A DNA stretch of 64,000 nucleotides, taken from positions 32,001 through 96,000 of the forward strand of contig JACQQD010000009.1 of the NCBI GenBank assembly GCA_016207165.1, read 5' to 3'. The position numbers were made by a program, and so were the translations under genes. Every line of letters starts with the position of its first letter. Position 1 is the stretch's first letter. The notes beneath the pieces are model-generated. The model searched no databases. It was not told the origin of the DNA and was given only the letters and a program-made list of their open reading frames with translations. This document shows, one piece after another, positions 14,900-61,503 of this stretch. The stretch is from Candidatus Micrarchaeota archaeon. Its GTDB lineage: Archaea > Micrarchaeota > Micrarchaeia > Norongarragalinales > Norongarragalinaceae.

Positions 14900-15217
14900 C
14901 TAGAGGTCGTGGGTGTTGGCTTCATAGGGCTGGCCGAAGCCACCCTTGGACTCCGTGACGCTCAAGGGCTCGGTGAGGCCCCACTCCCAGGGGCGGAAGC
15001 CCCAGAAGAATCCGTAACTAAACAAGCCCAAGAACATGATCCACTTGACGATGGGGTACGGAATGACTAAAACGAACGTGATGACGATGGTTACAAGCAA
15101 CGCGACGACTTTGTTGTTGATGATTTCCGGGTAGAAAAGCCGCGAATACATCATGAAAAAAACGATGAGGGTAGCCACGAAGTCGAAGGCCTCCAAAAGG
15201 GCAAGCGGCGCCGCCAT
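14900..15217 (-). CDS. Small membrane protein
   Basis: Three hydrophobic segments; ATG at 15217 follows an AT-rich promoter region. Confidence 0.7.
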   Translation of the reverse strand: MAAPLALLEAFDFVATLIVFFMMYSRLFYPEIINNKVVALLVTIVITFVLVIPYPIVKWIMFLGLFSYGFFWGFRPWEWGLTEPLSVTESKGGFGQPYEANTHDL

Positions 15218-26832: not shown

Positions 26833-27011
26833 ATTGAACCAAACGTAAGACATTTCGTTGACTGTCGAACTTTCTTTGTTTTTGGTTTTCGGGGTGTTGG
26901 TCTCTAGGGTATTTCCCGCCCAAAAATTCCGTGGTTTCAGAAAGGTATTTATATATCTTTGCGATTTTTAAATGGAATTCGTTTCACAGACGTTTTCAGA
27001 GGGCGATTAGC

Positions 27012-41387: not shown

Positions 41388-42632
41388 TCACAAGTCCTCG
41401 TACAAGGGAAACTGTTTGCACAAGTAAAGCACGCCGCGTTTGACGGCTTCCAGTTCAGACGGTTTGTCCCAGCCTCGGATGGCGCGGGCCATTAATTGGC
41501 CGACTTCCTGCATTTCCGACTCTTTCATGCCGCGGGTGGTCAGAACCGGCGTGCCGAGGCGGATGCCGGATGGGTCAAAGGGTTTTCTTGGGTCAAAGGG
41601 AATGGTGTTGGCGTTCACCGTGATGTGGGCTTGGTCCAACGCGGTTTCCGCTTGCTTGCCGGTGACGTTCAGGGGACGCAAGTCGGCGAGAAGCAGGTGG
41701 TTGTCGGTTCCGCCGGTTACAAGCCGGATGCCTTCCGCACTCAAGGATTCGCCCAAGGCTTTGGCGTTCTTGACGATTTGCCGGGCGTAGTCTTTGAACT
41801 CGGGTTTAAGCGCTTCCGCAAAGGCCACGGCTTTTCCGGCGATGATGTGTTCATGGGGTCCGCCTTGCATTCCGGGAAAAACGGCTTTGTCGATGGGTTT
41901 GGCAAATTGTTCCTTGCACATGATCATGGCCCCCCGCGGTCCGCGAAGGGTCTTGTGTGTGGTGGTTGTCACCACGTCGGTGAAGGGAAACGGTGACGGG
42001 TGAACTCCGCCTACAACCAGGCCGGCGATGTGGGAAATGTCGGCCATGGAAATGGCGCCCACGCTTTGAGCGATTTCGGCGAAGCGCTTGAAGTCGATTC
42101 GTCTTGGATACGCGGTGGCGCCGGAAACAATCATTTTCGGCTTTTCAGTTTTAGCCTGTTTTTCGATGGCGTCGTAATCTAAAAGCTCCGTGTCTTTTTG
42201 TACGCCGTATTGCACGAACTGGTATGCTTTTCCGGAAAAATTGACGGCGTGCCCGTGCGTGAGGTGGCCGCCTTCGCTTAGCGACATGCCCATGATTTTG
42301 TCGCCCAATTGCAGTAACGCGAAATAGACTTCCAGGTTGGCTGGCGAACCGGAGTAGGGCTGGACGTTGACGTGTTCCGCGCCAAACAGTTTTTTGGCGC
42401 GTTCAATGGCCAAGTCTTCCATTTGGTCGATGACTTCGTTCCCGCCGTAGTATCTTTTGTGGGGGTATCCCTCGGAGTATTTGTTGTTCAGGACGGAGCC
42501 CATGGCTTCCAGAACGGATGGAGACACCATATTTTCCGAGGGGATCATCTCGAATACGGTCTGCTGGCGCTTGATTTCGGATTGGATGATTTGCGCGACC
42601 TTGGAGTCGGTCTTCTGGACGTGTTCAAGCAT
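41388..42632 (-). CDS. glyA: Serine hydroxymethyltransferase (bacterial-like)
   Basis: [42 protein letters not shown]. Confidence 0.97.
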
Positions 42633-42690: not shown

Positions 42691-45600
42691 TCACCGTGCA
42701 AACAACGTGCTTCCAACCAGGATGCCGTTGGCCCAGTACGTTCCCGTCGGGCCGTCCGGCAGAATGTCGTAGGTGGCCCCGGTTTCATAGGACTCCACAC
42801 GGATTCGGGTCACTCGTCCATGGTCGACGTCGTCGCCAATTTTCAGTTCATCCACGTTGCGTCCGTCGGAAAGGGGATGCCCTTGTGATATCCGCGCTTG
42901 CCGTCCATCATCCAAGACGAGGTGAACGATTTTTTGTCCAGGTTGCGTGCTTCGGCTCGTGGCCTTCAAAACGACGCCCACGGTTTTCTTTCCTTCCGCG
43001 TTCGTGGTGTACACGGCATCTCCTTGGCGTAGTTGCTCGACGGGCACCGGGCCTTTCGGCGTGTCGATGCGCGTTCCTTTGGCCAGGCAAATCGGGCAAT
43101 TCAATGCACTTGCCGTTTTTTCGTTGATGGTGGCCGTTTGGCTGGCCACCGTTCCCTTCACCAAATACGTTCCCCCGCCTTGGTTTTGCGTGCCGGAAAT
43201 TTTTTCGTGCGTGGAAAAGTCAAATCCGTTGCCGTTGCTTGTCATTCCAATGGCGCGCAAGCGCTTGTATTCCCTGTAGACCTCCAGTTTTTGGTCGTCC
43301 GTAAGCGTCTGGACGCCGGCCAGATTCAGGTGGCGTAAAATGACGGCGTATTCAACGGCGTCTTCGGGCGCTGAAACGTATTCTTGGGCGTGCTGTTTTT
43401 CCAGGTCCAAGCTCCCTATGGGGTAGTAATCGCGGTCGCAAAAGTCAACGCTTCCAGTCAGCGCCGCCTTGACGGAATACCTGGACTCCGCCAAGTCTCC
43501 GGGAGACGGATTTGGGGTGCATACTGGAGCAACCGGGCAGCCGTTGGCATCGGTTTGGCCATTGGGGTAAGTGAGGGTTCCCCCGATGCAGCCGGGCATG
43601 GCGACGGTCGGGCACACCGGCGCGCCCATGGTGCAGGTTGCTCCCGCGGAGCCGTCGTAGTAAATCATGTAGCCTTTGCCGGGCTCCAATGGCGTAGAGG
43701 GGTCGACGTTTTGGAATTGCGCGGATTGGCTGGGCAAGCCCAGAGCGGTGCGCACGAAGATGGATGGAGTTGTAGCCGGTGGAGGAGTTGGTGAAGGGGT
43801 CGCGCTCGGTGAGACCGTGGGTGCACCCGCGAGGCAACATTGGTAGGCTTGCAGTTGTCCGGAGCCGCAGGCGGCGGCCGCGACGCCGTCTGGATCAGAA
43901 ACCAACCAATTGGTTGGACACTGGCCTTGGAGCCGGCATTCGCCGTTCTGCGTGGTGCAGGCGTTGGGGGTGGGACTTGGCGTGGTGGCGGTTCCGGTGG
44001 GTAGGCTAAGTTTGTGGAGTTTTCCGGTGCTAGTCCACGTGCTGGTCAATAAGTTGTATTGGCCGGGGACGCTGGCGTAGCCCACGGAGCCGGGAGCCAA
44101 GACCCAGGATCCGACGCCTTCCGGTGTCGGGTACGCGGCGGCCAAAACCGTCATGTCGGACAAGCGCACGCCCGTCCAGCCGCTTTGGGAACCCAGCACG
44201 TAGGCGATGTCGTTGTTGGCGTCGACCACAGCGGAAAGGGCGTTTGGGACGCTGGCCGAGGCGACTAAGGTAAAGTCGTTGGCGCGTCGTTTATTCAATG
44301 CCCCGTTGTGCACGTAGTAGACGACGCCTCCGGATTGGTCGTTGACGGCGCCGACGGGGCTGCCGATGGGGCTGTTGGTTTGGCTGGCGGTTTGCAGGGT
44401 GGCCACGTTGATTTTTCGTGCGGTTTTGTCCGCCAGGATCGTCGAACCCGTATATATGTTGACGGTGTCGGTGACGGCGCCGATGAGGAGGTTGTCGGGA
44501 ATTCCGGATTGCTGGGCGACAATGTTCAACGTGACGGGATCCATTTTCACGAGTTGTTGGTCGCTGGTTTCCGCGTACAAGTTGGGCCCGATGGACAACG
44601 CGTTCTTGATGGCGGTGCTGGGATATTCTTTCGTGGATTGCTGGGTCAAGTCCGACGCCCGGTAGCGGGTAATCTTGGTGGAATACGTTCCTCCGAATCC
44701 GCCGAAGTTGCTGGCGGGGGTGGTGACTTGCCAGTAGTAGACGTTGCCGCTTTGCTCGTGGTAGTACAGGAATCCGTAGGGGCCGCCGTCCGTTGGGATG
44801 GCGACTTGGTTCTGGATTTGCAGGGTGTCCAACCGGATTTTCAGGATTTTAGTCACGACGGGGTAGACGGTTCCTTCTTGAAGCGTGCCATAGGCGTATA
44901 CGCCGTCGGAGTCCACGGCTAATTGTGTGATGTCGGCTTGGGGTGGGGTGAGTTCCAAGGTTTGAGTGATGGTGAACGCGTTGGGCGTCGGGGTTGGTGT
45001 AGGAGTTGGGCTTGAACTTGCTGTTGGCGTAGCGCATTGGTATTGATAGCACGGGCACGGAGCGGAGGCGCAAGATGGACACAATGGTTGGTTGCGTTGC
45101 TGGCAGGTTTGCCCGCTTTGGCATTGCGTGAGTCCATCGGGGCAGAGGAATGTGTTTGGCGTCGGAGTGGGCGTTGCGGTCGGTGTAACGTAGGCCGGGC
45201 AATTTCCTCGGATGGCGTTGAACGTGGCGGGTTGCGGCGGGCCTGCGATGAAGGTGTAGCCGGTTCTTAGAATGGGGGCATAGGTTTGGGCGGGTTTGTC
45301 TTCCCACGTCAGGCTGCAGGCTTGTTCTCCGTACACGAGGTATCCGACGGGGTACTGAAGCGAAGGCAATTGGTTTTGGTTCAGGGGCGAGAGTTCACCG
45401 AGGCCCTGGATGTATTCGAGGAACAAGTATTTGCCGAAGGGGTCCCGGCATGAGGTGGACAATAGCGCGCCGTCGCCCAAGGGTCCGATGGCGGTAAAGC
45501 CGGCGGGTATGTTGACCGTCTTTTTGGGGATTGGAGGCGGGCACTCGCCGGGAACGTACGGAATGGCGTCCGCGAGGCGGGCTTCGCAGGCGTTGGAGAA

Positions 45601-47496
45601 TTGCTGGGTTTCCTGGTAGCATACCGGCGCGTATTGACCTTGGCAGTTAAGGTTGGCGCACGCGCCCGTGCTCCACGGCGTGGCGCCGGGTGTTTTTTCG
45701 GCTTCGCAGGCGTTTATATACGTTACAAAGTCAAATCCGCAGACCAATGGGCCTTCGGTGCCGCATGCACAGTTTTCTCCTTGGCACGTTTCTCCGCCGA
45801 CGTTGACCGTCACGCACTTTTTGATGAGGTCCACGGACGTCAGCCGTAGCGTGATGCCAGTGCTTTTGGCCAGGTTGTCGTTTTCCTTGGAGTACTTGCC
45901 TAACATGTAGGTGCAGGCCGCGGAGTACGTGCTGCAGGCGATGGCTTTGCTGCGCTGTCCGGTTTGCGGGTCCAAGGTGTCGCTGGTGCTTTCGACTTGG
46001 AACACGGCGCGCTCCAAGGCGATGTCTTTGAGGGAGTAGTTGTAGATGACTTCGCCAAGGCCTCCGGGATTGAATTCCAGGCCTTCGTTCAGGCACACTT
46101 TTCTCGGCGTGCCGCCGGTGGGCGGCTTGAGGGGTGGATCAATGGGTTTGGGCAAGTCCAGGGTGACTGCGTTGCTTCCGGATTGCAGGGTGACGTCTTT
46201 GGAAACGGAGGGCTCGCCCACTACCGACGTGGCACTGACCAGCACGCTTACCAGACTCAGGTCGGTGAATCGCGCGATGCCGCTTTCGTCGGCCACTTGC
46301 GTGCGGTAGTCGATGGTTTGGTCGAATACTTTCTTGAGCACGGCCACGCGGGCTTGGGCGGCGGGGGTCGCGTCGTTGTTTCGCACGGTCACAGTCAAGT
46401 CCGCCAATTGGGTGCCGGCGGGAAGGGCTTCCAACGTCAAGGTGACGTCGTTTCCGGGTTCGAATTGGGCCGCCTTATCATTGAAGCCGTCTTTGGAGGC
46501 CAGCACGCCGTACGTTTTTCCTTTTTCCAGGGTCGCCTCGATGCGCCCGGATCCTTCCGTTAATTGGTCGAGGATGGCGGGGCTGGCAAAGACTTGGATG
46601 CGTGCCCCGGAAACGGGTTGGCCGTCTTGGTTTACCACGTTGATGCGGCTTGTGCCGGTGTTGGGTCCGGTTGTCGCGGTCAAGAGTACTTCCGTTGTCA
46701 CTTCGGCGGCGTTAATCGAAACGCCTTGGATGTCGCTTGGAACAAACCCTTGCTTTCGGGCTTGAAGGGACACCGTTGAACCTTGCTTGACGCCGAATTG
46801 GAGGGTGCCGTCGCTCTCCGTGGAGCCTTGCGCCAGAAACGTTCCGGTGGCGCCGTCGTACAGCGTCACCACGGCGTTTCCGATGGGTTGGCTGGTGGTT
46901 TTGTCTTTGACGGTGACGTTCAGGCGGGCGTCCGCCACGTAATGCGTTGGCCTTGGAGTTGGAGTACTTTCACTGCCTCCGGTTGGCGTGGGCGTGGGGC
47001 TGCCGGACCCGCCTCCGGGAATGGTGGGCTGGGGTTTGGGGGTGGGAAGCGGCGGTATTTTGGGCGGGTTGGCAAAATCCAGTTTCCTGGGGTCCGGTTT
47101 TTCCTTGAGCTTGATTTGTTTGCCGTCGGGGTCTTGCGGGTCGTAGTGGCCGATGGCGTCGTCGTAGCCGTTGCGCGTGACTTTGTACGTGTAGCGTTGG
47201 TTGGGGTCGACTCCGGGAAACATCGCTTTGCCGTTTTCGTCCGTCACGGCTTCCCCGATTTTGTTGCCGTTCTCGTCGAAGAGTTCCACCAACGCGCCGG
47301 CCAAGGGGTTGCCGTTCTCGTCGGTAATCGTCAACGTCAGGCTCTGGGTGGACTTGTAGTACAAGTAGCCTCCGAAGAGAAGGACGAGCAGTATGATGAC
47401 TCCCGACAGGATGGTGACGGCTTTTTTTTCGTCCATGTCTTGGACGACGTCATCCAGTTTCTCGGTCAAATCCTTCCAAATGTCCGACAAGCTCAA
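42691..47496 (-). CDS. 1601-aa N-anchored surface protein with beta-sandwich domains, two Kazal-like modules, a beta-propeller-like region and a C-terminal Hint domain
   Basis: TM near residues 26-45; Kazal VCGFDFVTYINAC and PVCY...FSNAC; Hint CLAKGTRIDTP...SQGHP...TYDI...ANGILVGST. Confidence 0.88.
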   Translation of the reverse strand: MSLSDIWKDLTEKLDDVVQDMDEKKAVTILSGVIILLVLLFGGYLYYKSTQSLTLTITDENGNPLAGALVELFDENGNKIGEAVTDENGKAMFPGVDPNQRYTYKVTRNGYDDAIGHYDPQDPDGKQIKLKEKPDPRKLDFANPPKIPPLPTPKPQPTIPGGGSGSPTPTPTGGSESTPTPRPTHYVADARLNVTVKDKTTSQPIGNAVVTLYDGATGTFLAQGSTESDGTLQFGVKQGSTVSLQARKQGFVPSDIQGVSINAAEVTTEVLLTATTGPNTGTSRINVVNQDGQPVSGARIQVFASPAILDQLTEGSGRIEATLEKGKTYGVLASKDGFNDKAAQFEPGNDVTLTLEALPAGTQLADLTVTVRNNDATPAAQARVAVLKKVFDQTIDYRTQVADESGIARFTDLSLVSVLVSATSVVGEPSVSKDVTLQSGSNAVTLDLPKPIDPPLKPPTGGTPRKVCLNEGLEFNPGGLGEVIYNYSLKDIALERAVFQVESTSDTLDPQTGQRSKAIACSTYSAACTYMLGKYSKENDNLAKSTGITLRLTSVDLIKKCVTVNVGGETCQGENCACGTEGPLVCGFDFVTYINACEAEKTPGATPWSTGACANLNCQGQYAPVCYQETQQFSNACEARLADAIPYVPGECPPPIPKKTVNIPAGFTAIGPLGDGALLSTSCRDPFGKYLFLEYIQGLGELSPLNQNQLPSLQYPVGYLVYGEQACSLTWEDKPAQTYAPILRTGYTFIAGPPQPATFNAIRGNCPAYVTPTATPTPTPNTFLCPDGLTQCQSGQTCQQRNQPLCPSCASAPCPCYQYQCATPTASSSPTPTPTPTPNAFTITQTLELTPPQADITQLAVDSDGVYAYGTLQEGTVYPVVTKILKIRLDTLQIQNQVAIPTDGGPYGFLYYHEQSGNVYYWQVTTPASNFGGFGGTYSTKITRYRASDLTQQSTKEYPSTAIKNALSIGPNLYAETSDQQLVKMDPVTLNIVAQQSGIPDNLLIGAVTDTVNIYTGSTILADKTARKINVATLQTASQTNSPIGSPVGAVNDQSGGVVYYVHNGALNKRRANDFTLVASASVPNALSAVVDANNDIAYVLGSQSGWTGVRLSDMTVLAAAYPTPEGVGSWVLAPGSVGYASVPGQYNLLTSTWTSTGKLHKLSLPTGTATTPSPTPNACTTQNGECRLQGQCPTNWLVSDPDGVAAAACGSGQLQAYQCCLAGAPTVSPSATPSPTPPPATTPSIFVRTALGLPSQSAQFQNVDPSTPLEPGKGYMIYYDGSAGATCTMGAPVCPTVAMPGCIGGTLTYPNGQTDANGCPVAPVCTPNPSPGDLAESRYSVKAALTGSVDFCDRDYYPIGSLDLEKQHAQEYVSAPEDAVEYAVILRHLNLAGVQTLTDDQKLEVYREYKRLRAIGMTSNGNGFDFSTHEKISGTQNQGGGTYLVKGTVASQTATINEKTASALNCPICLAKGTRIDTPKGPVPVEQLRQGDAVYTTNAEGKKTVGVVLKATSRSTQPGQKIVHLVLDDGRQARISQGHPLSDGRNVDELKIGDDVDHGRVTRIRVESYETGATYDILPDGPTGTYWANGILVGSTLFAR

Positions 47497-48203: not shown

Positions 48204-48804
48204 CGAAGGCATCGGCTTTCCTTTTTTCTTGTTGGATGCGCCGGTTTTCCACCATGACGACTTTCATTCCGGCCTTTTTCGCTCCAAGCAATCCGGCGTT
48301 GGAGTCCTCAATGACCACGCATTCCTTGGCGGGCACGCGAAGTTTTTCGGCCGCCTTGAGGAAAATGTCTGGCGACGGCTTTCCGTGCCGCACTTGGTCG
48401 CCGCCCACCACGGCGTCAAAAGCGTTTTCCAAACCGATTTTCGGCAACAGCAATTCCAGAAGCCACGTGTTGGTGGAGGAAGCCAAGGCCAGGGGGTAGC
48501 CGGATTTTTTTAGCGACAGAACCAATTCGGTGGCGCCGGGTAGGCTTCTCGCGGTCTTCAGGATGACGTCCAAGTATATTTCGTCGCGTTCCAGGTTGAG
48601 GGCCTCGATTTGCTTGGCCGATACGGTGATGCCGGCTTTTTCGTGGACGCGCCGGATGTTTTCCCTTGCGGGAATGCCGGTGACTTCCTGCGGAGTTTCG
48701 TCAAACGGAATTTTGTGCCGCCGCATGAGTTCGGAAAAAGATTCAAAGTGCTGGGGTTCGGAGTCCAGAATCACGCCGTCAAAGTCGAAGATGACGGCCT
48801 TCAA
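48157..48804 (-). CDS. HAD-family phosphatase (beta-PGM/CbbY-like)
   Basis: IFDFDGVILDSE, LASS, GKPSPDIF, IEDSNAG. Confidence 0.9.
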   Translation of the reverse strand: MKAVIFDFDGVILDSEPQHFESFSELMRRHKIPFDETPQEVTGIPARENIRRVHEKAGITVSAKQIEALNLERDEIYLDVILKTARSLPGATELVLSLKKSGYPLALASSTNTWLLELLLPKIGLENAFDAVVGGDQVRHGKPSPDIFLKAAEKLRVPAKECVVIEDSNAGLLGAKKAGMKVVMVENRRIQQEKRKADAFVTSLSGVTPFFLASI

Positions 48805-49658
48805 TCCAACCGCCTTAGGATTTGGTCCACGGCAAAGGCGATGTCTTGGGCTTCCGCCACCTGGACGCGGAGCTTCGAGACGAGTTGGCGGAGTTGCTTG
48901 ACGGTTCCAATGAGAAGCACGTCGGACTTCTCGATTTTATTGGAGATGCAGTCCTTGTGCACGGCCGCGTCGCCTCCCAAAGCCAGCATTTCCTGTTTGA
49001 GGATGTTGGCCATGGTCGCGCGCACGTTTTCCAGTCGAATGACCAACGAAATGGTTTTTTGCGCCATGGACTTGACGGAATACGTGTCCTGTACCCCGAT
49101 GTCGCGCATGCGTTTTTCGGCGTGTCCGATGGACGGAATTGTTTCCAGGGTGGCGTGGACTGCCGGGAGTTTGGAATCCATTTTCTTCACGGATTTTTTT
49201 TCTTGTTCGGGTAATTCGTCCCAGAGTTGTTGCACGGTTTTCTTCAGGACGGGGTGCAAGAGATGGGGTGCCACGTCTTTTAACGGCGCCAGGACGAACG
49301 CCCTCTCCGCGATTTTTGGGTGCGGGACGATGAATCCGTCCTGGTTGCCGACGAACGCGTCGTAGAACAAAAAGTCGATGTCAATGTTTCTTGGACCGTT
49401 TTTGGATTGCTTTTTTTTGCCGAGTCTTTTTTCCACGCTTTGGATGGCGGCCACCACTTCCTTGACGGGTTTCTCGGTGTAGGCTTTCACCACGGCGTTG
49501 AGGAACTCAGGTTGGTCCGCGTTGTATTTGGGTTTCGTTTCGTAGATGGGGGAACCGTTCACGTTGGCAAAATCCTGTCCCAGGGCGTGGACGGCGCGTT
49601 GGAGGTTTTGTTCGCGGTTGCCGACGTTGGAGCCCAAACCCAAGTAAACGTAAGCCAT
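48801..49658 (-). CDS. folK: HPPK (FolK) fused to a C-terminal domain like the FolP N-terminal extension
   Basis: YLGLGSNVG, FLNAV, GPRNIDIDFL, VPHP...RAFVLAPL; then ANILKQEMLALGGDAAV. Confidence 0.9.
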   Translation of the reverse strand: MAYVYLGLGSNVGNREQNLQRAVHALGQDFANVNGSPIYETKPKYNADQPEFLNAVVKAYTEKPVKEVVAAIQSVEKRLGKKKQSKNGPRNIDIDFLFYDAFVGNQDGFIVPHPKIAERAFVLAPLKDVAPHLLHPVLKKTVQQLWDELPEQEKKSVKKMDSKLPAVHATLETIPSIGHAEKRMRDIGVQDTYSVKSMAQKTISLVIRLENVRATMANILKQEMLALGGDAAVHKDCISNKIEKSDVLLIGTVKQLRQLVSKLRVQVAEAQDIAFAVDQILRRLD

Positions 49659-49736
49659 GTGAGGTTTGTGCACGCCAACGTTTTTCTGGGCTTTGCCCCT
49701 CGTAGGTGCCGGGCGGTCTCCTTCTTTTTCGGGCGT

Positions 49737-50897
49737 TTAGAGGCCCTTGGGCTTCTTCTTTTTGATGCGCGTGAAAAGGGCGTATCCGCCAGCGGTCAAT
49801 AGAATGACTAACCCGATGATCCAGGCGCTGCCTTCAAAGGCGGCCGTCACCAAACCCGTGAGTCCGCCGGGTGCCGGAGTGGCCGTGGCTTGAATGGTTG
49901 GAGCAGGCAATGCGGCCTGCGCGGGTGCTGGAGTTGCGGTGGCCTGCGCTGTTGGCGAAGGTGCGACTGGAGCCGGAGTGGCTGTCGTGCTTCTGGACGA
50001 GGGCGGCAGGCCCCCCGTTCCGCCTCCGCTGCTGGTAGTTGTGCCTGCGGCAGGAGCAGTTGGGCTGGGGCTTGCGGAAGGCGAGGGAGTGGGCGTCGCG
50101 CCTCCAGGGGGCGCTGGCGGGGAGCCGACGACGCCGTACGGCGTTCCGGCGGCGATGGTGAACGTGACGCGGTTGTTGGCAATATCCAGGGTGAACGGCG
50201 TGATTTGAACCCACTTTGTGCCGTCAAACCTCATGGGGACAATAGCGCTTTCGTCGATGCCCGCGTCGTTGTAGCAGAGCGTGACTTGGGTTGCAGCTCC
50301 GGTGACCGAGATTTCGTAGCCGCCCAAAAACGTGTTCCCGGCCCCGATTCCCACGGTTCCCGGAAGCGCGCTGCTGTTAAGCGCAGTGACGTTGTTGATG
50401 GTTACCGCTGTAGGCGTCGAAACGTTGATGTTCATGTCCAGGCAAGTGCCTGAGACGTGGATGGGCGAGTCGGGAAGGGCCAACAGGTGCACGTCACTGA
50501 GCGAGCCGTTGACGGTGACGTTTTGTTGAGCCGGAAACGCAAAACTCAAGTCCAGTTGCGTGATGGCGCTGGATTCAAATGATGCGGTCTGGCTGGCTTG
50601 GACCCGTCCGATGAAAAACGTGACGGTTTGGCCTTGCTGCAATTCGTCGCCTTGGACCAATAGTTTGGTTTGGCTCGATGACGGTCCGCCGTACGTTCCG
50701 GCTTGTTCGCTTTGCACGCTTCCAGCGTTTTGGGCGTTAACCATTGCGGACACCAGGGTGCCGACAGGAATGCCGACGCCGTTTGCGGTCGCGTTACCAA
50801 AAAACAGGTGCGGCAATTGGGGCGCCGCACCCACCGGCAACGCGAAGACCAGCGCCAATGCCGTCAACGCCAGAAAAGCGTGTTTCAACACCATCAT
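49737..50897 (-). CDS. Secreted, C-terminally anchored surface protein
   Basis: Signal peptide; PHLFFGNAT domain; PT/A linker; TM and KKKKPKGL tail. Confidence 0.8.
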   Translation of the reverse strand: MMVLKHAFLALTALALVFALPVGAAPQLPHLFFGNATANGVGIPVGTLVSAMVNAQNAGSVQSEQAGTYGGPSSSQTKLLVQGDELQQGQTVTFFIGRVQASQTASFESSAITQLDLSFAFPAQQNVTVNGSLSDVHLLALPDSPIHVSGTCLDMNINVSTPTAVTINNVTALNSSALPGTVGIGAGNTFLGGYEISVTGAATQVTLCYNDAGIDESAIVPMRFDGTKWVQITPFTLDIANNRVTFTIAAGTPYGVVGSPPAPPGGATPTPSPSASPSPTAPAAGTTTSSGGGTGGLPPSSRSTTATPAPVAPSPTAQATATPAPAQAALPAPTIQATATPAPGGLTGLVTAAFEGSAWIIGLVILLTAGGYALFTRIKKKKPKGL

Positions 50898-50974
50898 GTC
50901 AGTTTTGCACCAAAATTTCCTGTTTTTTAAAAATTAAAAGGGTGCCGGACACGAAGCGTGCCCGGCTTCCATTT

Positions 50975-52534
50975 TCAATCGTCCTGGCCCACGAACAGCG
51001 GCGTGGTCGTCTGGCCTGGCAGGGTGTCGTCGTTCTGCAGGAACGTCCAGTACCCGCCGAAGTTGTAGACGCTTTGCTCGCAGCTGTTGTCCGGTGAGGC
51101 GCCGGATTCCTCAATGTTCGGAATCCAGCTGAACCCGTTCTGGCTGAAATACCACGAGCCCCAGTCGGTGGAGTAACTGAGGTACTGTTGAGGACTGACG
51201 ACCAACTCCAACGCGCGGTTTCCGCTGGCATCGTAGACGACCGGGTTGAAGGTTTGCCCAATGCACGTGTTCCCTTGGACGTAAATGTAGGACAGGCGGC
51301 AGTTTCCAGGAGAGTATTCTTCTTCGCAGTAATACTCTTCGGGGTACTCCCAGTAGTCCGACAGTTCCAACGTGGGCCCAACCAGGCTCCAGCCTTCGGC
51401 CAATGGTTTGCTGGGAGGCGAGGTCACGCCGCGGTCGATGACCAACCCGAGTTGGTTGCGGGCCGTGGAGTGGAAGTAGTATCCCTCCAACGGCTCCATG
51501 GATCCGTCGGTGACCAGTTGCCAGGCTTGGGATGCGCTGTCAAAGGATAGTACGGCGTCAACGCTTTCCGCCATGAAGACTTGGTCTTGTTCCAAGGCGA
51601 TGGGGCTGGAGCGCAGAGTCCAGCCCTGTTCCAATGGTACGGTCAAGTCCGTGATGGTGACGGTGAGGCTGGTTTCCGCTTGGTTTCCTTCGCGGTCCGC
51701 CACGGTGACGGGCAGTTCAAATTCGCCCAATGCGATTTTCTGGGACAAAAAGAAGCCCATGTCGTCGTAGCTGATGACTTCATAGTCAAGCAGGCCCGAG
51801 ATGTCCGTCAGCGGACAGTACCAGAATGAATATTGAGGGTCTCTGTCTCCGCCGTAGAACTCACGGATTTCGTAATTTGCTAAATAGCTCTGCCATTGCT
51901 CTTCATTGAAGCTTTCCACGTCCGATATGCGGGCGAACATGGCGTTCAGAACCGTGCTTAGGTTCAAGGTTACCGAGTTGATGCCTGATTCCTCGTCGAA
52001 AGTCTCAATGTTGATGTACGTGCACTTGGGGTCGTAAAAGTATGCGCCATCGGCTCCGTAGTCTTCCAAGTCCAAAAAGCTGTGATCCAGTTCAGCGCTT
52101 TCGATGGTGGGAGCCTCGTTGTCGACGAGGATGAATACGGAAGAGGCGGTTTCCACGGCTTCGCCGGGGCCCTCTATGGTTTCAAACGTTGAATTGACTT
52201 GAAGGACGACGTCAAAAAAGTTGCCGCTTTCAAAGGCGTTGGTGTCCCACGTGGCCAGGGTGCTTTCTTCAATTTGCTCGGTTCCGCCTCCAAGGCGTGT
52301 GCAGCCATCGAAGTTGTCCCGTTCCCCGGATGGGCACACGAACACGTCGAACAGGAAGCTGGTCAGGGGGTCTTCGCCGTTGTAAAGCGCGGAGCCTTGC
52401 ACGTTGACGGTGCCGCTGACGGTGTCCTCAGTTCCAGGAGACGTGATGCTGGCGAAGCTGGGCCCTTGAGCCGAAACGAAAACTGCGGCAAACAACAGTA
52501 GCGCAAATCCGAACGACAATGCCTTCATGAACAC
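50975..52534 (-). CDS. Secreted, highly acidic surface protein
   Basis: Signal peptide; Ig-like SITSP...VSGTVNVQGSA; LEQGWTL/LAEGWSLVG modules; strongly Asp/Glu-rich. Confidence 0.8.
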   Translation of the reverse strand: MFMKALSFGFALLLFAAVFVSAQGPSFASITSPGTEDTVSGTVNVQGSALYNGEDPLTSFLFDVFVCPSGERDNFDGCTRLGGGTEQIEESTLATWDTNAFESGNFFDVVLQVNSTFETIEGPGEAVETASSVFILVDNEAPTIESAELDHSFLDLEDYGADGAYFYDPKCTYINIETFDEESGINSVTLNLSTVLNAMFARISDVESFNEEQWQSYLANYEIREFYGGDRDPQYSFWYCPLTDISGLLDYEVISYDDMGFFLSQKIALGEFELPVTVADREGNQAETSLTVTITDLTVPLEQGWTLRSSPIALEQDQVFMAESVDAVLSFDSASQAWQLVTDGSMEPLEGYYFHSTARNQLGLVIDRGVTSPPSKPLAEGWSLVGPTLELSDYWEYPEEYYCEEEYSPGNCRLSYIYVQGNTCIGQTFNPVVYDASGNRALELVVSPQQYLSYSTDWGSWYFSQNGFSWIPNIEESGASPDNSCEQSVYNFGGYWTFLQNDDTLPGQTTTPLFVGQDD

Positions 52535-52695
52535 TCCCCCACCCGCCGTATTGAGACGAAGTCTTTAAACGGCGTAAGCCAATGCACGACCCGTCAGCTA
52601 TATCTGTTTCTATATAAACACTATAGTTATTTTTTTAACAAATGGGACTGCGGTGTGTGTGAAACAAAAGCCACTGGTTTCCATCGGCAACTCGG

Positions 52696-53859
52696 TTACC
52701 GCTGGATTTGAACGGATGCTTGGGCTGTGTTTTTGAGTGCCGAGGGCTTGACCGCCCGTACGGTCACGCGTTTGGCTCCGAGTTTTTTGACGGCGTCGGC
52801 GACCGCTTCGCCCAGAGATTCCAGGAGGTTGAAGTGTCGGCTTTCCGCGGCGTTTTTCGCGGCTGAAACGATGGCGCGGTAGTCCAACGTTTTTTTCAAG
52901 TCGTCGGTCTTCACGGCTTTTTTGAGGTCCAAGAACGCGTGCACGTCTACGACGACGTCTTGGACCGATTTTTTTTCCCACGCGAGCACTCCGACGTGGG
53001 CTTTAACCCGCAGGTTTTCCACGCGGATGCCGTCCTCAGGTGAATCCGCTTGGATGGCCCACGCCACGTCCACGGCTTTTTGGCAGGCCGCCACGTCGTG
53101 AACGCGCAACACGTTCGCCCCGTTCAAGACGCATGCCGTGACCGCGGCCAGCGTGCCTTCCAGGCGGTTGGACGCCTTTTCTCCCGTGATTTTGCCGATG
53201 AAGCTTTTGCGGGACACGCCGATGCACACGGGGTAACCGAATTGAAATTGCTTCAAGTTGGCAAGCAATTCCAGGTTGTGCTCCAAGGTTTTCCCAAACC
53301 CGATGCCGGGGTCAATCAGGATGCTTTGGATGCCGTTTTTTTTGGCTTGGCGGGCTTGCATCAATAGAAATGCCTTGACTTCTTCCACCACGTCTTGGTA
53401 TTTCGGGTTTTCCTGCATGGTCTGCGGCGTGCCTTGCATGTGCATGATGACGGCCCCGGCTTTCGCGTCCGATACCGCGTCCATCATTTCCGGGTTCGTC
53501 AGTCCCGTGACGTCGTTCACCATGTGCGCCCCGGCGTGCAAGGCGGCTTTTGCGACGTCGGGCTTGTACGTGTCCACGGAAATCATGGCTTGTGTTTCTT
53601 GGGCGAGTCGTTCAATCACGGGTAGGATGCGTTTTTTCTCTTCGGCCATGGAGACGGCTTTCGCGCCGGGCCGGGTGCTTTCGCCGCCGACGTCGATGAT
53701 GGCGGCGCCTTCCTGGATCATTTGTTTGGCGTGCTTTACGGCCGCTTCAAGGTCCTTGAATTTGCCGCCGTCGGAAAAACTGTCGGGCGTGACGTTCAAA
53801 ATCCCCATGAGCTTCGGGCGGGAGAGGTCAAGCACTTTGTTTTTGGCGTGAAATTTCAT
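52696..53859 (-). CDS. folP: Dihydropteroate synthase fused to C-terminal dihydroneopterin aldolase (FolP-FolB)
   Basis: GILNVTPDSFSDGG, GGESTRPG, DPGIGFGK, SRKSF, RVHDV; then HVGVLAWEK...TLDY...LLESL...KP. Confidence 0.93.
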   Translation of the reverse strand: MKFHAKNKVLDLSRPKLMGILNVTPDSFSDGGKFKDLEAAVKHAKQMIQEGAAIIDVGGESTRPGAKAVSMAEEKKRILPVIERLAQETQAMISVDTYKPDVAKAALHAGAHMVNDVTGLTNPEMMDAVSDAKAGAVIMHMQGTPQTMQENPKYQDVVEEVKAFLLMQARQAKKNGIQSILIDPGIGFGKTLEHNLELLANLKQFQFGYPVCIGVSRKSFIGKITGEKASNRLEGTLAAVTACVLNGANVLRVHDVAACQKAVDVAWAIQADSPEDGIRVENLRVKAHVGVLAWEKKSVQDVVVDVHAFLDLKKAVKTDDLKKTLDYRAIVSAAKNAAESRHFNLLESLGEAVADAVKKLGAKRVTVRAVKPSALKNTAQASVQIQR

Positions 53860-54637
53860 TTTGAACGAACTCCTGGAATGCGTGTTGAAGCGTTTGCGTG
53901 GTTTTCCCTGCCCTGATTTTTTTCCCGTCTACTTTGGTTAGGGAAACGACTTGTTTGAGGGTGGAGGTGAGAAACGCTTCATCGGCTCCAAAGAGTTGTT
54001 CTTTGGATAGGGATTCTTGGCGGACGTCGAACCCGTTTTGTTTGGCCAATTCGATGACGGCGTGGCGCGTGATGCCTTCCAGAACGCCGTCTTTCGGCGT
54101 GGTGATCGTGTTGCCGTGGATGCAAAAGAGGTTGCTGGTGGTTCCTTCCAACACGTTTCCTTTTTGGGTGAAGATGGCTTCGTCGCATCCCGCTTTTTTG
54201 GCTTGCTTTCTCGCCAGCACTGACGTGAGGCAGTTGAGGGTCTTGGCTTTGGCGACATCGCGGTGGAACGGCACGGTCACCGCGGAAAACGTTTTCGGGA
54301 TTTGGCCGAGGGGTTTGGCCATCACGATGAGGCTTGGCGTTGCCGTTCCCCAGTCGCTTTGGCTTCCGGCGGTCAAGACCACGCGGAGGGCGGCTTGACT
54401 GAGGCGGTTGGCTTGAATGGTTTTTTGAATGGCGTTTTGGAGGTCTTTTTTTTCGGGTGCCGGCAACTGGATTTCGCGGGCGGACTGTTGTAAGCGTTCG
54501 ATGTGCTCGTCCATCTTGAAGGCGGTGCCTTGGTAGACGCGGAGGGTCTCGTACACGCCGTACCCGTACAAAAGGCCTTCGTCAAATACGTTGATGTGAG
54601 CGTCTTGAACCATCTGCCCACTGACGAAAACCAGCAT
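53828..54637 (-). CDS. pabC: Class IV PLP enzyme, probable aminodeoxychorismate lyase
   Basis: GLLYGYGVYETLR, AKTLNCL, EGTTSNLF, LEGITR, ADEAFLTS; lies between pabB and folP. Confidence 0.75.
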   Translation of the reverse strand: MLVFVSGQMVQDAHINVFDEGLLYGYGVYETLRVYQGTAFKMDEHIERLQQSAREIQLPAPEKKDLQNAIQKTIQANRLSQAALRVVLTAGSQSDWGTATPSLIVMAKPLGQIPKTFSAVTVPFHRDVAKAKTLNCLTSVLARKQAKKAGCDEAIFTQKGNVLEGTTSNLFCIHGNTITTPKDGVLEGITRHAVIELAKQNGFDVRQESLSKEQLFGADEAFLTSTLKQVVSLTKVDGKKIRAGKTTQTLQHAFQEFVQNEISRQKQSA

Positions 54638-54685
54638 GAATTGTTGGGTGGCGTGCCCGATTAAAAGCTGTTCTTGTCCGAGTCG

Positions 54686-54952
54686 TTAATTTTTTTGAAG
54701 TCTTTTAATGGCTTCAAAAACCTCTTTTTCAGCCATTCTGGCAATTTTGAAATACCCGGTTCCGTACGGTTCAAGCGGCGTATGTTCTACGTGGTAACCT
54801 TTTTCCATGAGGCTGGTCATGATGTTTTGCAAGTCAAATTGTTTGCCGCCGCGTATTTCCTCGTATTTGACGCAGTAGTACGGTCCCTCCACCCAAACGT
54901 GTCGTATGTTGGCATGCGGGCACAGCTTCCTTTCAAGTATTTTGTGCGGCAT
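54686..54952 (-). CDS. Hypothetical 88-aa protein
   Basis: Fills the gap between pabB and pabC on the same strand. Confidence 0.55.
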   Translation of the reverse strand: MPHKILERKLCPHANIRHVWVEGPYYCVKYEEIRGGKQFDLQNIMTSLMEKGYHVEHTPLEPYGTGYFKIARMAEKEVFEAIKRLQKN

Positions 54953-54997
54953 TTGATCAGTCTACTTCACGATGACGGCGGACTTAACTCTTCTTTT

Positions 54998-56368
54998 CTA
55001 GCGCAGAGCCAGCTTCATGGCTTCCGCTTTGTCCAAGCTTTCTTGGTACTCTTTTTCCGGTACGGAGTCCGCCACGATGCCGCCCCCGGCGTGAAAATAC
55101 GCGGTTTGCTTTCCGTTTTCGTCTTTCTTAAAATACAGCGTGCGGATGAGGATGTTAAACGCCGCGTCGCCGTTCCAACCGATGAATCCCAATGAACCGG
55201 TGTAGGGCCCGCGGGCAACGGGTTCGACTTCCCTGAGGATTTGCATGGTTCTGACTTTGGGGCAGCCCGTGATGGTTCCTCCGGGAAACAAGGCGGAAAG
55301 CGCGTCAAAGGCGGTGGCGTCTTTTTTGAGGGTGCCTTGGATTTGGCTGACCAGATGCATGACGTGGGAATAGCGTTCCACGGTGAAGCCTTCTTGAACC
55401 AAAACGGTGCCGGTGAGGCTGATTTTTCCGACGTCGTTGCGTTCCAAGTCGACCAGCATGGCGTGTTCCGCGTTTTCTTTCGCGTTTTGTTTGAGTTCCA
55501 GTTCCAGTTGCTGGTCTTTGGCCTTGGTTTTGCCTCGTGGGCGAGTGCCGGCGATGGGTCGCGTAGTGACGGTTTGGCCGTTGATGGAGAACAAGAGTTC
55601 CGGGGACGCGGAGGCGATGGTCGTTTCTGGCGTGGTGAAGTAGGCGGCGTAGGGGGAGGGATTGATTTGGTTTAGTTTGATGAACACGTCGAATGGGTTC
55701 TTGGTGGTTTCCGCTTGGAAGCGTTGAGACAAATTGGCTTGAAAGGTTTCTCCGGTCTTGATTTTTTCTTTTATGGCGTTGACGGCGGCGAGGTATTGTT
55801 TTTGGGTGAAGTTGGACGCGATGTTTCCGGTTTTGCCTTTACGGGTTCTGGTTTTCGGTTTCCGGTTTTTTGGATTGATTTCTTGGAGTAGTTTCAGGCT
55901 TTTTTCTTGATCGCCGAATGAGAGCACTTTTTTTTTCTGGTGGTCAAAGGCCAGGCCGTGGTCGAAGAACAAAAAGTGCAGCCATGGCAGGTGGAGGTCG
56001 TCGGTTTTGGGTTTTGGGGCGTCTTCCAAATAATGCAGTGCCTCGTAGGACGGGTAGCCGACCATGCCGCCTTGGAAGGGCGGGCCGTGTTCGGACCACG
56101 TTTTGTTTTTGCGGTGGATTTCGTAGAGTTCTTTCAGGATTTCAAGGGGTTTTCTTGGGTCGGGTTTGCCGTTGACCCAACACGTGGCGCCGCGGGCCTT
56201 GAATTCGAGGAAGGGGTTGACGCAGAGGTACGACCAGCGGGCCGGGGGTTCAAGCGAACTTGACGGATGGGTCGTTACGTTCGTTTGTGGGGGGGAGTAA
56301 AGAAGGACGGCGTTTTCCGGGTTGAGGGCTGCAAACGCGTCCAGGGGGTTGAACCAAAAAGGGGGCAT
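54998..56368 (-). CDS. pabB: Aminodeoxychorismate synthase component I (MST family)
   Basis: PFQGGMVG, ASPEL, RPIAGTRPRG, EHAMLVDLERND, FPGGTITGCPK, GGGIVADS; folate context. Confidence 0.85.
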   Translation of the reverse strand: MPPFWFNPLDAFAALNPENAVLLYSPPQTNVTTHPSSSLEPPARWSYLCVNPFLEFKARGATCWVNGKPDPRKPLEILKELYEIHRKNKTWSEHGPPFQGGMVGYPSYEALHYLEDAPKPKTDDLHLPWLHFLFFDHGLAFDHQKKKVLSFGDQEKSLKLLQEINPKNRKPKTRTRKGKTGNIASNFTQKQYLAAVNAIKEKIKTGETFQANLSQRFQAETTKNPFDVFIKLNQINPSPYAAYFTTPETTIASASPELLFSINGQTVTTRPIAGTRPRGKTKAKDQQLELELKQNAKENAEHAMLVDLERNDVGKISLTGTVLVQEGFTVERYSHVMHLVSQIQGTLKKDATAFDALSALFPGGTITGCPKVRTMQILREVEPVARGPYTGSLGFIGWNGDAAFNILIRTLYFKKDENGKQTAYFHAGGGIVADSVPEKEYQESLDKAEAMKLALR

Positions 56369-56373
56369 TGCGT

Positions 56374-57957
56374 CTATCCGTATTTTTCCTTGACTTGCCT
56401 GATTTTCTCGTCGATTTTCTTCTCGGATTCGATGCGTTCCAAGCCGGTTTGGTTGCGGTGCACGAACTTCATGTATTTGGTCAGGCGGGGCTGGGCTTTG
56501 GCGGCTTCGTCGGCCATGGCTACCGCAACGCGTCGGTAGTCGGGGTGGCCTTGGGGCATGGAGCGTAGTTCCACGAGGTGGTAAAGCGCCCGCAGGTTCA
56601 ATGTGAAGTACCACTGGAGTCGAAACGCCATGGGCACGACGTACTGGGCCTGTCCGGGTTGGTCTTTGAATTCGTTGTACGCGTTTTGGGCCGAAAGCAG
56701 GGGGGCGGTGAATTGTTCTTTCAGGTCCGCGTCCACGATTTCAGGCGGCAGGTCAAAGCCGTGGTTGGTGGTCAAAAGCTGGCGGTGTTGGGTGAGCATG
56801 CGGTGCCTCTGCAAGTCGCGGTACGCGCCGTAGTTGGCTTGTATTGAAAATGTGTAGTTGGCGTGTTCAAAGGCTCGGCCGGGTTTGTGGCGGCGGTTCT
56901 GGCGGTGGGCGCAATACGCGTCAAGGACGTGCTGTTTTTGGTCGGGCGTCATTTTGGAAACGGTTTGCTTGAGCGTGGCCAAGTCGGCGTGGCTGGATTC
57001 GTATAATATGGCGGCCACGATTTTGTCTTCCGCCTTTTCGTCGTATTCCACTAGGATGACTTCCCTGTTTTGGGTGGAAGAAGGCGTGGCGATGGCTTGG
57101 AGTTGCGCCTGGGTTTGCTGGAAGAAGGCCTGCGTGGCTTTTCCGTGCTTGTCGTTGGCTCGCTTGACGAACGACGGAACTACTTTTTCGAGTTCGGCGT
57201 GCATGGCGGCGGCCGTGTCGCGGGCTTCCTGGAGCGGGGAGGCATACATTTTCAAGAGCAGGTATTCAAAGGCGCGTCCGTTGCCGAAAAGCCCCACGTT
57301 GGTTTGCGTGGCCGCCGGCAGCAAGCCCCGGAGGATGTCGCAGACTTTGGCGCGGGTAGCGCTTTGGTAGGCGCGGTCAGAGGAATCGGTTTGAGGGAAT
57401 TTTTCCTGGACGTATTTGGTGACGGGGTCCATCAAGGTGGTGTACGCGTCAAAGAGTGCGTCGCAGGTTTTCTCGTAGAGCGCGGAGTCGGTTTCCATCA
57501 GCAGCGGTTCGCGGTAGTAGGCGTATTTCCCGTTTTTTTTCTGGTTGAAGTAGACGTACCGCGTGCTTTTCTCTAAGGGGCTCAACCCGATTCGTCCGTC
57601 TTCCAGGATTTTGGTGACCACGTTGGACGTATTCTCGATGGCGATGTGGGCTCCGCCGAGTTCCGCCACCGAATCGTCGCCGAATCCGACCAGGACGCGG
57701 TCGTAGAATTGTTCGGCTTTTTGGATGGCCACCGTCTCGTCTTTTGTTGGCGCGGAAACGATTTGGTCAAATGCCATGTCTTGGTCCTGGATGAATTCGT
57801 CCAAGAGCACGCGGCGCAGGCTCTTGGTGGTGCGGCTGTACCTGGAAAACAAGGCGCCTTTGACGACTTCCGGGAGGTTGCGCAGGGCGAAGACGTCTTG
57901 GTCTAAGTTGGTAAAATAGGGCTTGAGGATGGCTTGCTCTTTGTCGTTGAACTCCAT
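56374..57957 (-). CDS. thyX: FAD-dependent thymidylate synthase, long two-domain form
   Basis: GALFSRYSR, GFGDDSVAEL, EKSTRY, RDLQRHR, ELRSMPQGHPDYR. Confidence 0.9.
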   Translation of the reverse strand: MEFNDKEQAILKPYFTNLDQDVFALRNLPEVVKGALFSRYSRTTKSLRRVLLDEFIQDQDMAFDQIVSAPTKDETVAIQKAEQFYDRVLVGFGDDSVAELGGAHIAIENTSNVVTKILEDGRIGLSPLEKSTRYVYFNQKKNGKYAYYREPLLMETDSALYEKTCDALFDAYTTLMDPVTKYVQEKFPQTDSSDRAYQSATRAKVCDILRGLLPAATQTNVGLFGNGRAFEYLLLKMYASPLQEARDTAAAMHAELEKVVPSFVKRANDKHGKATQAFFQQTQAQLQAIATPSSTQNREVILVEYDEKAEDKIVAAILYESSHADLATLKQTVSKMTPDQKQHVLDAYCAHRQNRRHKPGRAFEHANYTFSIQANYGAYRDLQRHRMLTQHRQLLTTNHGFDLPPEIVDADLKEQFTAPLLSAQNAYNEFKDQPGQAQYVVPMAFRLQWYFTLNLRALYHLVELRSMPQGHPDYRRVAVAMADEAAKAQPRLTKYMKFVHRNQTGLERIESEKKIDEKIRQVKEKYG

Positions 57958-57996
57958 GAGCAAAGTTTGTTAAGCGGCCGGTCAAACTTTAATCTT

Positions 57997-61426: not shown

Positions 61427-61503
61427 ACCACGATCTTGGGGTGGCACGTTTTTAAAGATTCCTCGCCCAAGAATACCTTGTAAAACCTTATTGTGTGATG
61501 GCC

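Follow-up and report, generated by a model that had tools for sequence, protein, structure and literature searches.

Hint domains that carry a Cys at their first position (Cys1), a Thr/Ser-x-x-His motif in block B and an Asp in block F perform an N-S acyl shift, which places a thioester at the -1|1 junction (PMC4031507, PMC10663303, PMC5874633). As these sources describe it, a Hint domain without a terminal Asn can carry out neither succinimide cleavage nor splicing (PMC4031507, PMC10663303, PMC5874633). Hedgehog passes its Hedge domain to cholesterol (PMC5874633). In Tetrahymena BUBL, the BIL2 domain (BIL, bacterial intein-like) attaches the ubiquitin-like domain before it to lysines, and does so without ATP (PMC8616854). 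Here we describe a related arrangement in a 64,000-nucleotide stretch of DNA from a Candidatus Micrarchaeota archaeon (assembly GCA_016207165.1, contig JACQQD010000009.1, positions 32,001 to 96,000), hereafter the window. Its minus strand encodes a surface protein of 1601 residues, the stalk, which has a Hint domain at its C-terminal end. Judging from its sequence, this Hint domain very probably cuts itself off the stalk. By analogy with Hedgehog and BUBL, self-cleavage may chemically activate the stalk's new C-terminal end.

A Hint domain at the distal end of the stalk

The stalk reading frame translates without internal stops. Its last 132 residues, Cys1470 to Arg1601, form a mini-Hint domain, with the Cys1470 codon at 43087-43089 (residue numbers presume a TTG start at 47496). 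The Pfam family Hint_2 (PF13403), which we take to be the type B BIL family, scores 36.8 bits with the whole protein and 42.5 bits with the domain alone, against a gathering cut-off of 28.4; the match covers only positions 1-51 of the 147 in the profile. Modelled with AlphaFold2, the last 269 residues reach a predicted local distance difference test score (pLDDT) of 92.6. A Foldseek search of the PDB with this model returned 63 matches at E<=0.001, and those at the top are mini-inteins, BIL domains and Hedgehog, with a probability of 1.00 and target TM-scores (TMt) up to 0.77. They include a Clostridium thermocellum BIL (2lwy, TMt 0.76), Tetrahymena BIL2 (6tmm, 0.72) and Hedgehog (1at0, 0.66). 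Sequence searches of the PDB give a weak alignment of the stalk Hint to inteins. Taken together, these results exceed chance by far, and the domain can be assigned to the HINT fold with high confidence.

Block A reads CLAKGTRIDTP. Motifs corresponding to blocks B and F are also present (Table 1). The other end of the domain is unusual. The stalk terminates in YWANGILVGS-TLFAR followed by a stop codon, with Gly-Ser where His-Asn would stand. The Ser-Thr-Leu register at the intein Asn and +1 positions was set by aligning ANGIL to an intein found in the PDB sequence search, and by a block G consensus that we assume to fix these positions. The translation contains no His-Asn and no C-extein beyond the five residues, and a domain of 132 residues leaves no room for an endonuclease. 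Since Ser occupies the Asn position and almost nothing follows it, splicing and succinimide cleavage would be impossible.

The cassette family

The Hint domain does not stand alone. It is preceded by an alpha/beta domain of 134 residues, the pre-Hint domain, which when modelled by itself with AlphaFold2 has a pLDDT of 94.1 and a predicted template modelling score (pTM) of 0.87, and which consists of four helices packed on a four-stranded antiparallel sheet. Sequence searches indicate that the two domains together are a conserved cassette of 269 residues that defines a large unnamed family. The preliminary description of this DNA had envisaged a survey of the combination of the FCDRDYYP domain with Hint across taxa. 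Against 1.84 billion cluster representatives, the last 269 residues matched 1712 proteins at E<=1e-3, 1126 at <=1e-10 and 196 at <=1e-30, mostly from Chloroflexota among the best matches. In the best 150 of the 1712 the aligned region almost always extends to the subject's C-terminus or stops a few residues short of it; about 134 of these also cover the 134 residues before the Hint, and about 16 begin only near it. A word-indexed search returned 1264 proteins of 147-471 residues at E<=1e-5, and a search of the ESM Atlas with the cassette gave the same picture. Those members that have names are called only "hypothetical" or "Hint domain-containing protein" and come from metagenome-assembled genomes of Chloroflexota, Limnocylindria, Anaerolineales and Bacteroidota.

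At the level of genomes, 412 loci in species-representative genomes encode relatives of the cassette (the query was a 10-row cassette alignment). The best 80 are mostly from Chloroflexota, with a few from Dormibacterota, Methanoperedens, Methanosarcinaceae and others. Most of the encoded proteins are 300-350 residues long and begin with a signal peptide and lipobox Cys, from which a Pro/Thr/Ser linker leads to pre-Hint and Hint. The lipobox pattern matches 129 of 283 family proteins, many of the 283 being fragments. Five Chloroflexota genomes were checked for copy number, and each has exactly one cassette.

Conservation was counted in 284 family domains aligned to a profile, which are the best-scoring search returns and not a random sample. 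All 284 have Cys1, Leu at Hint residue 2, the block B His and the block F Asp, and 279 have the block B Ser. Upstream of Cys1 there is Cys(-3) in 278 of 283, Pro(-2) in 280 and Ile(-1) in 261. At the other end the Asn position is Ser in 283/284, +1 is Thr in 274/284 and +2 is Leu in 274/283. Only two to four residues follow the Ser-Thr in 188 of the 266 proteins whose end motif could be detected by pattern, so cleavage would free nothing except the Hint itself. With such conservation the Hint looks competent for the first step, the N-S acyl shift. The preliminary description had read the end of the stalk as a Hint domain starting at Cys1470, devoid of endonuclease, His-Asn and C-extein and able to form a thioester, on a protein anchored only at its N-terminus. 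All of this stands, the first step being plausible from the conserved residues. The anchor is placed at the N-terminus because a Kyte-Doolittle scan of the whole protein gives one hydrophobic segment, at residues ~26-47.

The CPxC motif belongs to the Hint module, as it stays with the Hint in proteins that have no pre-Hint domain. Hints of the form CP[IV]C...GST[LI] are found behind unrelated domains in three proteins of ~270 residues from other genomes of the archaeon's phylum, and behind dockerin, Gmad2 or peptidoglycan-binding N-terminal parts in proteins of candidate phyla radiation (CPR) bacteria. The Hint subfamily occurs in Chloroflexota, CPR bacteria and archaea. A literature search that left subscription journals mostly outside turned up nothing on this subfamily or on the occurrence of Hint domains in surface proteins of DPANN archaea.

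The reverse arrangement, a pre-Hint domain without a Hint, is a different matter. Pre-Hint matches occur in 30 of 401 sampled Chloroflexota genomes. A full Hint follows in 28, and not one of the 30 ends at the predicted cut site. The frames of the remaining two (L115 in genome G509 and L119 in G672) stop 26-29 residues into the Hint, and from their sequences these are likely to be pseudogenes or frameshifts.

What kind of domain is pre-Hint? Its most conserved residues are a lone Cys (247/251) within C-D-P-D-x-Y-P and the motif Y-R-E-x-K-x-L. In cassette numbering these positions include Cys21 (Cys1353 of the stalk), Asp22, Asp24, Pro27, Tyr75 and Lys79. Pfam has no family for the stalk's copy, and 17 family members gave three singleton matches with E of at least 0.043. 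NCBIfam returned nothing meaningful, Foldseek found no PDB match at E<=0.001 and the ESM Atlas yielded no usable match. In a VIA-align comparison with 48,161 chains the highest Z was 4.8, for alpha+beta folds of the VirB8, NTF2 and cystatin-like kinds. An NTF2-like identity was considered and not adopted, because this Z is below the tool's own noise level. No ubiquitin-like chains are among the Foldseek and VIA-align matches listed, although absence from such lists is no exclusion. A complex prediction between pre-Hint (cassette residues 1-137) and Hint (138-269), run without controls, gave no verdict either way (score 0.00).

The stalk's own relatives indicate that the cassette moves. P0272 is 61% identical to the stalk over residues 21-1300 and P0274 about 45% identical over most of residues 467-1332, and both lack the cassette. 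P0273, the closest relative, shares the first ~770 residues and has a 70% identical cassette in the middle of the protein, followed by 414 residues. These contain a GYM-x-YYDG domain, which in the window's stalk lies before the cassette. Cleavage at CPI|C in P0273 would sever the distal part of that stalk. However, P0273 is a single record on a 9.6-kb contig, and its arrangement may be an assembly chimera. In P0002, a fragment of a further relative, the cassette is preceded by Cys-rich repeats that resemble those at the C-terminus of P0272 (E 3e-28).

A maximum-likelihood tree built quickly from 78 cassettes (5 of 76 locus reading frames with partial cassettes were excluded) pairs the window's cassette with that of P0273, with a value of 99 in the Shimodaira-Hasegawa-like approximate likelihood ratio test (SH-aLRT). 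The pair joins P0002, P0003, P0152 and P0153 (SH-aLRT 99) amid a mainly Chloroflexota/Dormibacterota set. As the tree is unrooted, no direction of transfer is claimed. Within the archaeon's phylum, the window's genome (G000) is the only one of 401 sampled that has a full cassette, and three genomes have strong Hint-only matches; a protein query did not find the cassette in 40 close relatives. This patchiness among stalk homologues and the absence from close relatives indicate that the cassette is a shuffled module within a hypervariable surface-protein family, and one that has probably been exchanged horizontally. BIL domains are described from the same setting, variable surface or secreted proteins (PMC7765530).

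Fate of the putative thioester

The proposed series of events begins after export. The Hint would carry out an N-to-S acyl shift at Ile1469|Cys1470, converting this peptide bond to a thioester. The acyl group would then pass to a nucleophile from outside, an amine or a hydroxyl that belongs either to the envelope of the same cell or to a partner cell. The 132-residue Hint would be lost, leaving a stalk that ends in Cys-Pro-Ile on the pre-Hint domain. On the model of Hedgehog and Tetrahymena BUBL, the purpose would be to activate the C-terminus, and the transfer would tie the distal end of an N-terminally anchored stalk covalently to the acceptor. Cys1467-x-x-Cys1470 would serve as a redox gate, its disulfide form blocking Cys1. 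Step 1 is indeed blocked by a disulfide between Cys(-3) and Cys1 in the MoaA intein of Pyrococcus abyssi and in a DnaE intein engineered to have one (PMC10663303). This precedent and the near-invariance of Cys(-3) and Pro(-2) lend support to the redox control suggested in the preliminary description for the CPIC motif. Two Chloroflexota proteins (L111 in G529 and L113 in G565) have Arg-Pro-Ile-Cys and Tyr-Pro-Ile-Cys, respectively; these natural variants without Cys(-3) could serve as controls for the gate.

By analogy, then, the best reading of the cassette is a redox-gated, single-turnover thioester module of the BIL/Hedgehog kind. The fold, the motifs with their conservation, the architecture and the distribution have been shown, whereas cleavage, thioester, gating and above all the transfer and its acceptor are what we infer here. 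Transfer of the acyl group to an outside acceptor is offered tentatively, as a real possibility that falls short of an expectation.

There are several points against it. The claim of outside transfer draws on sequence and analogy for every member of the family. Type B BILs, the nearest described class, are reviewed as cleaving only (PMC4031507). No acceptor is indicated, and an all-against-all clustering of reading frames at 80 loci gave no conserved neighbour gene: the cassette itself is present at 75, and the next largest cluster, with what reads like a response-regulator-like N-terminus, at 12. The stalk gene sits among genes of folate and serine metabolism. Unlike Hedgehog, the cassette has no adduct-recognition region after the Hint, merely the five-residue tail. 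Lacking a significant match to its fold, pre-Hint offers no basis for claiming a binding pocket. The internal cassette of P0273 would suit a breakable joint equally well. Finally, a thioester exposed outside the cell may simply hydrolyse. Nothing points to ligation to a host or matrix molecule, as had been proposed in the preliminary description, and host attachment cannot be the general role of the cassette because it is found mainly in small lipoproteins of free-living Chloroflexota.

What if water is the acceptor? The Hint would then be a self-removing C-terminal pro-domain, which could for example aid folding, export or masking of pre-Hint, and the mature stalk would end at Ile1469 with a free carboxylate. 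Conservation of the catalytic residues across the 284 domains fits this, as does the cleavage without splicing for which type B BILs are reviewed (PMC4031507, PMC7765530), and neither acceptor nor partner gene nor adduct-recognition region was found. Against it, Hint-less forms ending at the cut site should be common if only removal mattered, yet there is none among the 30 Chloroflexota pre-Hint matches. In addition, plain hydrolysis would leave the conserved Ser-Thr-Leu end without a role. Water as the acceptor is in our view doubtful, although a serious contender. If the Hint were a mere disposable appendage its loss would be frequent, and the fact that pre-Hint was never found without Hint in the sampled Chloroflexota genomes argues otherwise. 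Together with the point that cleavage of a terminal Hint frees nothing else, this suggests that the thioester is the point of the device.

The conserved end suggests another acceptor, one inside the protein. The Ser that takes the place of Asn and the Thr that follows it at +1 are retained much like the catalytic residues, and a +1 Thr, Ser or Cys is the step-2 nucleophile of class 1 inteins (PMC4031507). Attack by Thr1597 or Ser1596 would give a branched ester holding stalk and Hint together through a side chain. Alternatively Cys1467, whose equivalent is kept in 278 of 283 domains as part of the Hint module and not of pre-Hint, would give a Cys-Pro-Ile thiolactone at the new C-terminus. However, both proposals are drawn purely from the positions of motifs, and neither product has, to our knowledge, a precedent among Hint proteins. 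An internal acceptor is improbable.

Slightly more improbable still is an inactive Hint whose role at the stalk's tip would be structural or one of binding. Loss of the block G Asn and His, and alignment to just the first third of the Hint_2 profile, would agree with this. It is hard to reconcile with step-1 residues (Cys1, block B His and block F Asp) that are invariant across the 284 domains, which argues for retained chemistry. A true splicing intein, or a pretoxin-type HINT releasing a C-terminal toxin, shares the fold and has in its favour a weak PT-HINT similarity (E 0.021), but it is refuted by the stalk sequence itself, which has no Asn, C-extein, endonuclease or toxin domain and only five residues after the Hint, belongs to a variable rather than a conserved protein, and falls below the Pfam thresholds for PT-HINT and Intein_splicing.

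Returning to the redox-gated thioester module, its furthest extension is a sortase-independent, single-use covalent anchor. A reducing signal would open the Cys(-3)-Cys1 disulfide, the thioester would form, pre-Hint would present the acceptor and the far end of the protein would be fixed. This idea is an unlikely one. If it were true, the acceptor would be an envelope amine, or a lipid or glycan hydroxyl. Chloroflexota lipoproteins would staple membrane to wall, and the giant stalk tip of a DPANN episymbiont would staple the symbiont to its host cell. Few natural uses of Asn-less Hint thioesters are known, namely cholesterol attachment to Hedgehog and ubiquitin-like conjugation in Tetrahymena. 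Should the thioester of the cassette reach an acceptor, it would represent a new ATP- and sortase-independent means of fixing prokaryotic surface proteins covalently, and in the stalk's archaeon it might join symbiont and host covalently. Even with water as the acceptor, the cassette would be a natural and compact self-cleaving tag, probably redox-switched, of interest to protein engineers.

The locus and its comparison with known systems

Table 1. Positions in the window of the stalk gene and its parts
Feature	Window positions	Strand	Basis or remark
Whole stalk gene, 1601-aa surface protein	42691..47496	-	TTG start, stop codon 42691-42693; homologous stalk proteins P0272-P0274
N-terminal transmembrane segment, residues 26-47	47356..47421	-	Sole hydrophobic anchor; Kyte-Doolittle scan
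Four CarboxypepD_reg / prealbumin-like Ig-type domains, residues ~49-460	46117..47352	-	Pfam PF13620, E 1.1e-27, 4 stretches
Two Cys-rich, probably Kazal-like modules, residues 571-652	45541..45786	-	Sub-threshold in stalk protein
Pre-Hint domain, residues 1333-1466, 134 aa alpha/beta, motifs FCDRDYYP and YREYKRL	43099..43500	-	AlphaFold2 model
CPIC, Cys1467-Pro-Ile-Cys1470	43087..43098	-	CxxC across predicted scissile bond Ile1469|Cys1470
Mini-Hint domain, Cys1470 to Ser1596	42709..43089	-	Pfam Hint_2; Foldseek matches to inteins, BIL, Hedgehog
Block B, Ser1537-Gln-Gly-His1540 (SQGH)	42877..42888	-	TxxH equivalent; Ser 279/284, His 284/284 in family
Block F, TYDILPD	42754..42774	-	Asp invariant in family, 284/284
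Terminal Ser1596-Thr1597-Leu1598	42703..42711	-	Register of intein Asn / +1; Ser 283/284, Thr 274/284, Leu 274/283
Five-residue tail TLFAR after Ser1596	42694..42708	-	Translation; no C-extein

The database copy of the stalk (P0271) is 1581 residues long and starts 20 residues further in; residues 1-20 can be aligned to the start of the homologues P0273 and P0274. The Kazal modules, which the preliminary description suggested might guard against proteases, are a mixed case. In the stalk itself Kazal_2 reaches 15.6 bits (E 0.018), below the Pfam gathering cut-off of 22.8. However, P0273 and P0274 bear precomputed Kazal families (PF07648/PF00050), and for this reason the Cys-rich modules are probably diverged Kazal-like domains.

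The genome, in 12 contigs, totals 1.27 Mb, with a completeness of about 90%. Several of its features are consistent with an archaeon: an intein-containing RtcB, an ATP-dependent DNA ligase, two FtsZ genes and a 93-nucleotide tRNA-Gly. Housekeeping genes flank the stalk gene: glyA lies directly downstream, and genes of the folate pathway lie upstream. The folate and one-carbon cluster around the stalk gene (41388-42632 and 48801-59214) contains glyA, HPPK, a DHPS-FolB fusion, a class IV aminotransferase, a PabB/TrpE-like synthase and FolC, which seems much biosynthesis for a genome of 1.27 Mb.

Elsewhere in the window, a second giant reading frame (4728-11072, plus strand; 2114 residues) has CarboxypepD_reg domains and no Hint match, and it is probably another variable surface protein of the stalk's kind. 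Adjacent FtsZ paralogues (26931-28085 and 28327-29397, both plus strand) both score above the TIGR00065 cut-off. A tRNA-Gly(TCC) at 14942-15034 on the minus strand is 93 nucleotides long, which exceeds a plain tRNA and makes an intron probable. An RtcB tRNA-splicing ligase with an intein (61495-63999, plus strand; RtcB E 4.6e-118, Intein_splicing E 1.8e-12) runs off the window's end. Other Hint domains were seen beyond the window. The genome's second Hint_2 match (L002, G000:C6:62390-65512) is an ordinary LAGLIDADG intein ending His-Asn|Cys in a small Cys-rich protein. A protein from another genome of the phylum sample (L099, G073:C3:22822-26193) has at least four tandem Hint domains, each ending His-Asn-Lys-Gly-Gly-Cys and running directly into the next Hint, and then transmembrane segments.

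Turning to known systems, the stalk has what defines the HINT superfamily: the fold, the Cys1470 nucleophile and Ser1537-x-x-His1540. It is not a class 1 intein, as there is no C-terminal His-Asn and no C-extein with Cys, Ser or Thr. Moreover, such inteins sit at conserved sites of conserved hosts, whereas the stalk is variable and its cassette is absent (P0272, P0274) or located elsewhere (P0273) in relatives. PT-HINT (PF07591) differs by the downstream toxin domain that the stalk lacks, and its score is 15.5 bits against a cut-off of 27.7.

Closer are the type B BILs (Hint_2), with which the stalk Hint shares a variable, secreted, non-conserved host, Cys1 and the block B His, and an end without His-Asn (PMC4031507, PMC7765530). 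The Hint_2 score is above the gathering cut-off, and from its conserved residues the stalk Hint, like type B BILs, would be expected to cleave rather than splice. The stalk Hint differs in aligning to part of the profile only, and its subfamily differs by the Cys-Pro-Ile before Cys1, the invariant Ser-Thr-Leu end and an obligatory upstream domain of 134 residues without a Pfam family.

Hedgehog likewise has a C-terminal Asn-less Hint, and it is a structural match. Its Cys1 thioester is resolved by an outside nucleophile that modifies the C-terminus of the preceding domain. The stalk Hint, by contrast, is prokaryotic and has a tail of five residues in place of a sterol- or adduct-recognition region; the Pfam family Hint (PF01079) gives E 0.1 and 12.6 bits against a cut-off of 29.7. 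The nearest precedent for a Hint thioester that conjugates the preceding domain is BIL2 of Tetrahymena BUBL, and two of its structures (6tmm and 6y75) are among the best matches to the stalk Hint (TMt 0.70-0.73). However, BIL2 ends in an Asn (the mutant that was crystallised is N143A) where the stalk has Ser, and a ubiquitin-like domain precedes it where the stalk has an apparently unrelated alpha/beta fold.

The CxxC across the junction is shared with the redox-trapped inteins, MoaA and the CPGC variant of Ssp DnaE (3nzm/4gig), and HMMER aligns CPGC-LSFGT of the latter with CPIC-LAKGT of the stalk. Those inteins splice, inside cytoplasmic enzymes, whereas the stalk family has CPxC (278/283) on an exported Hint that would not splice. 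The thioester domain (TED) adhesins of Gram-positive bacteria, in which a surface thioester reacts covalently with its target (PMC4450167), are a functional analogue for the ligation reading. Their thioester is preformed, internal and between Cys and Gln side chains, in an unrelated fold, whereas the backbone thioester of the stalk would be made once by the Hint, which is then lost.

The general idea of a C-terminal Asn-less Hint that makes a thioester is already known. Type B BILs and Hog domains are described examples of this kind (PMC4031507, PMC7765530), and an Asn-less cleaving C-terminal Hint on a variable secreted protein is for that reason less unprecedented than the preliminary description implied. 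What appears to be new is a large unnamed Hint subfamily that has an obligatory partner domain, ends in Ser-Thr-Leu and contains a putative CxxC gate, and that is carried here on the tip of a giant archaeal stalk.

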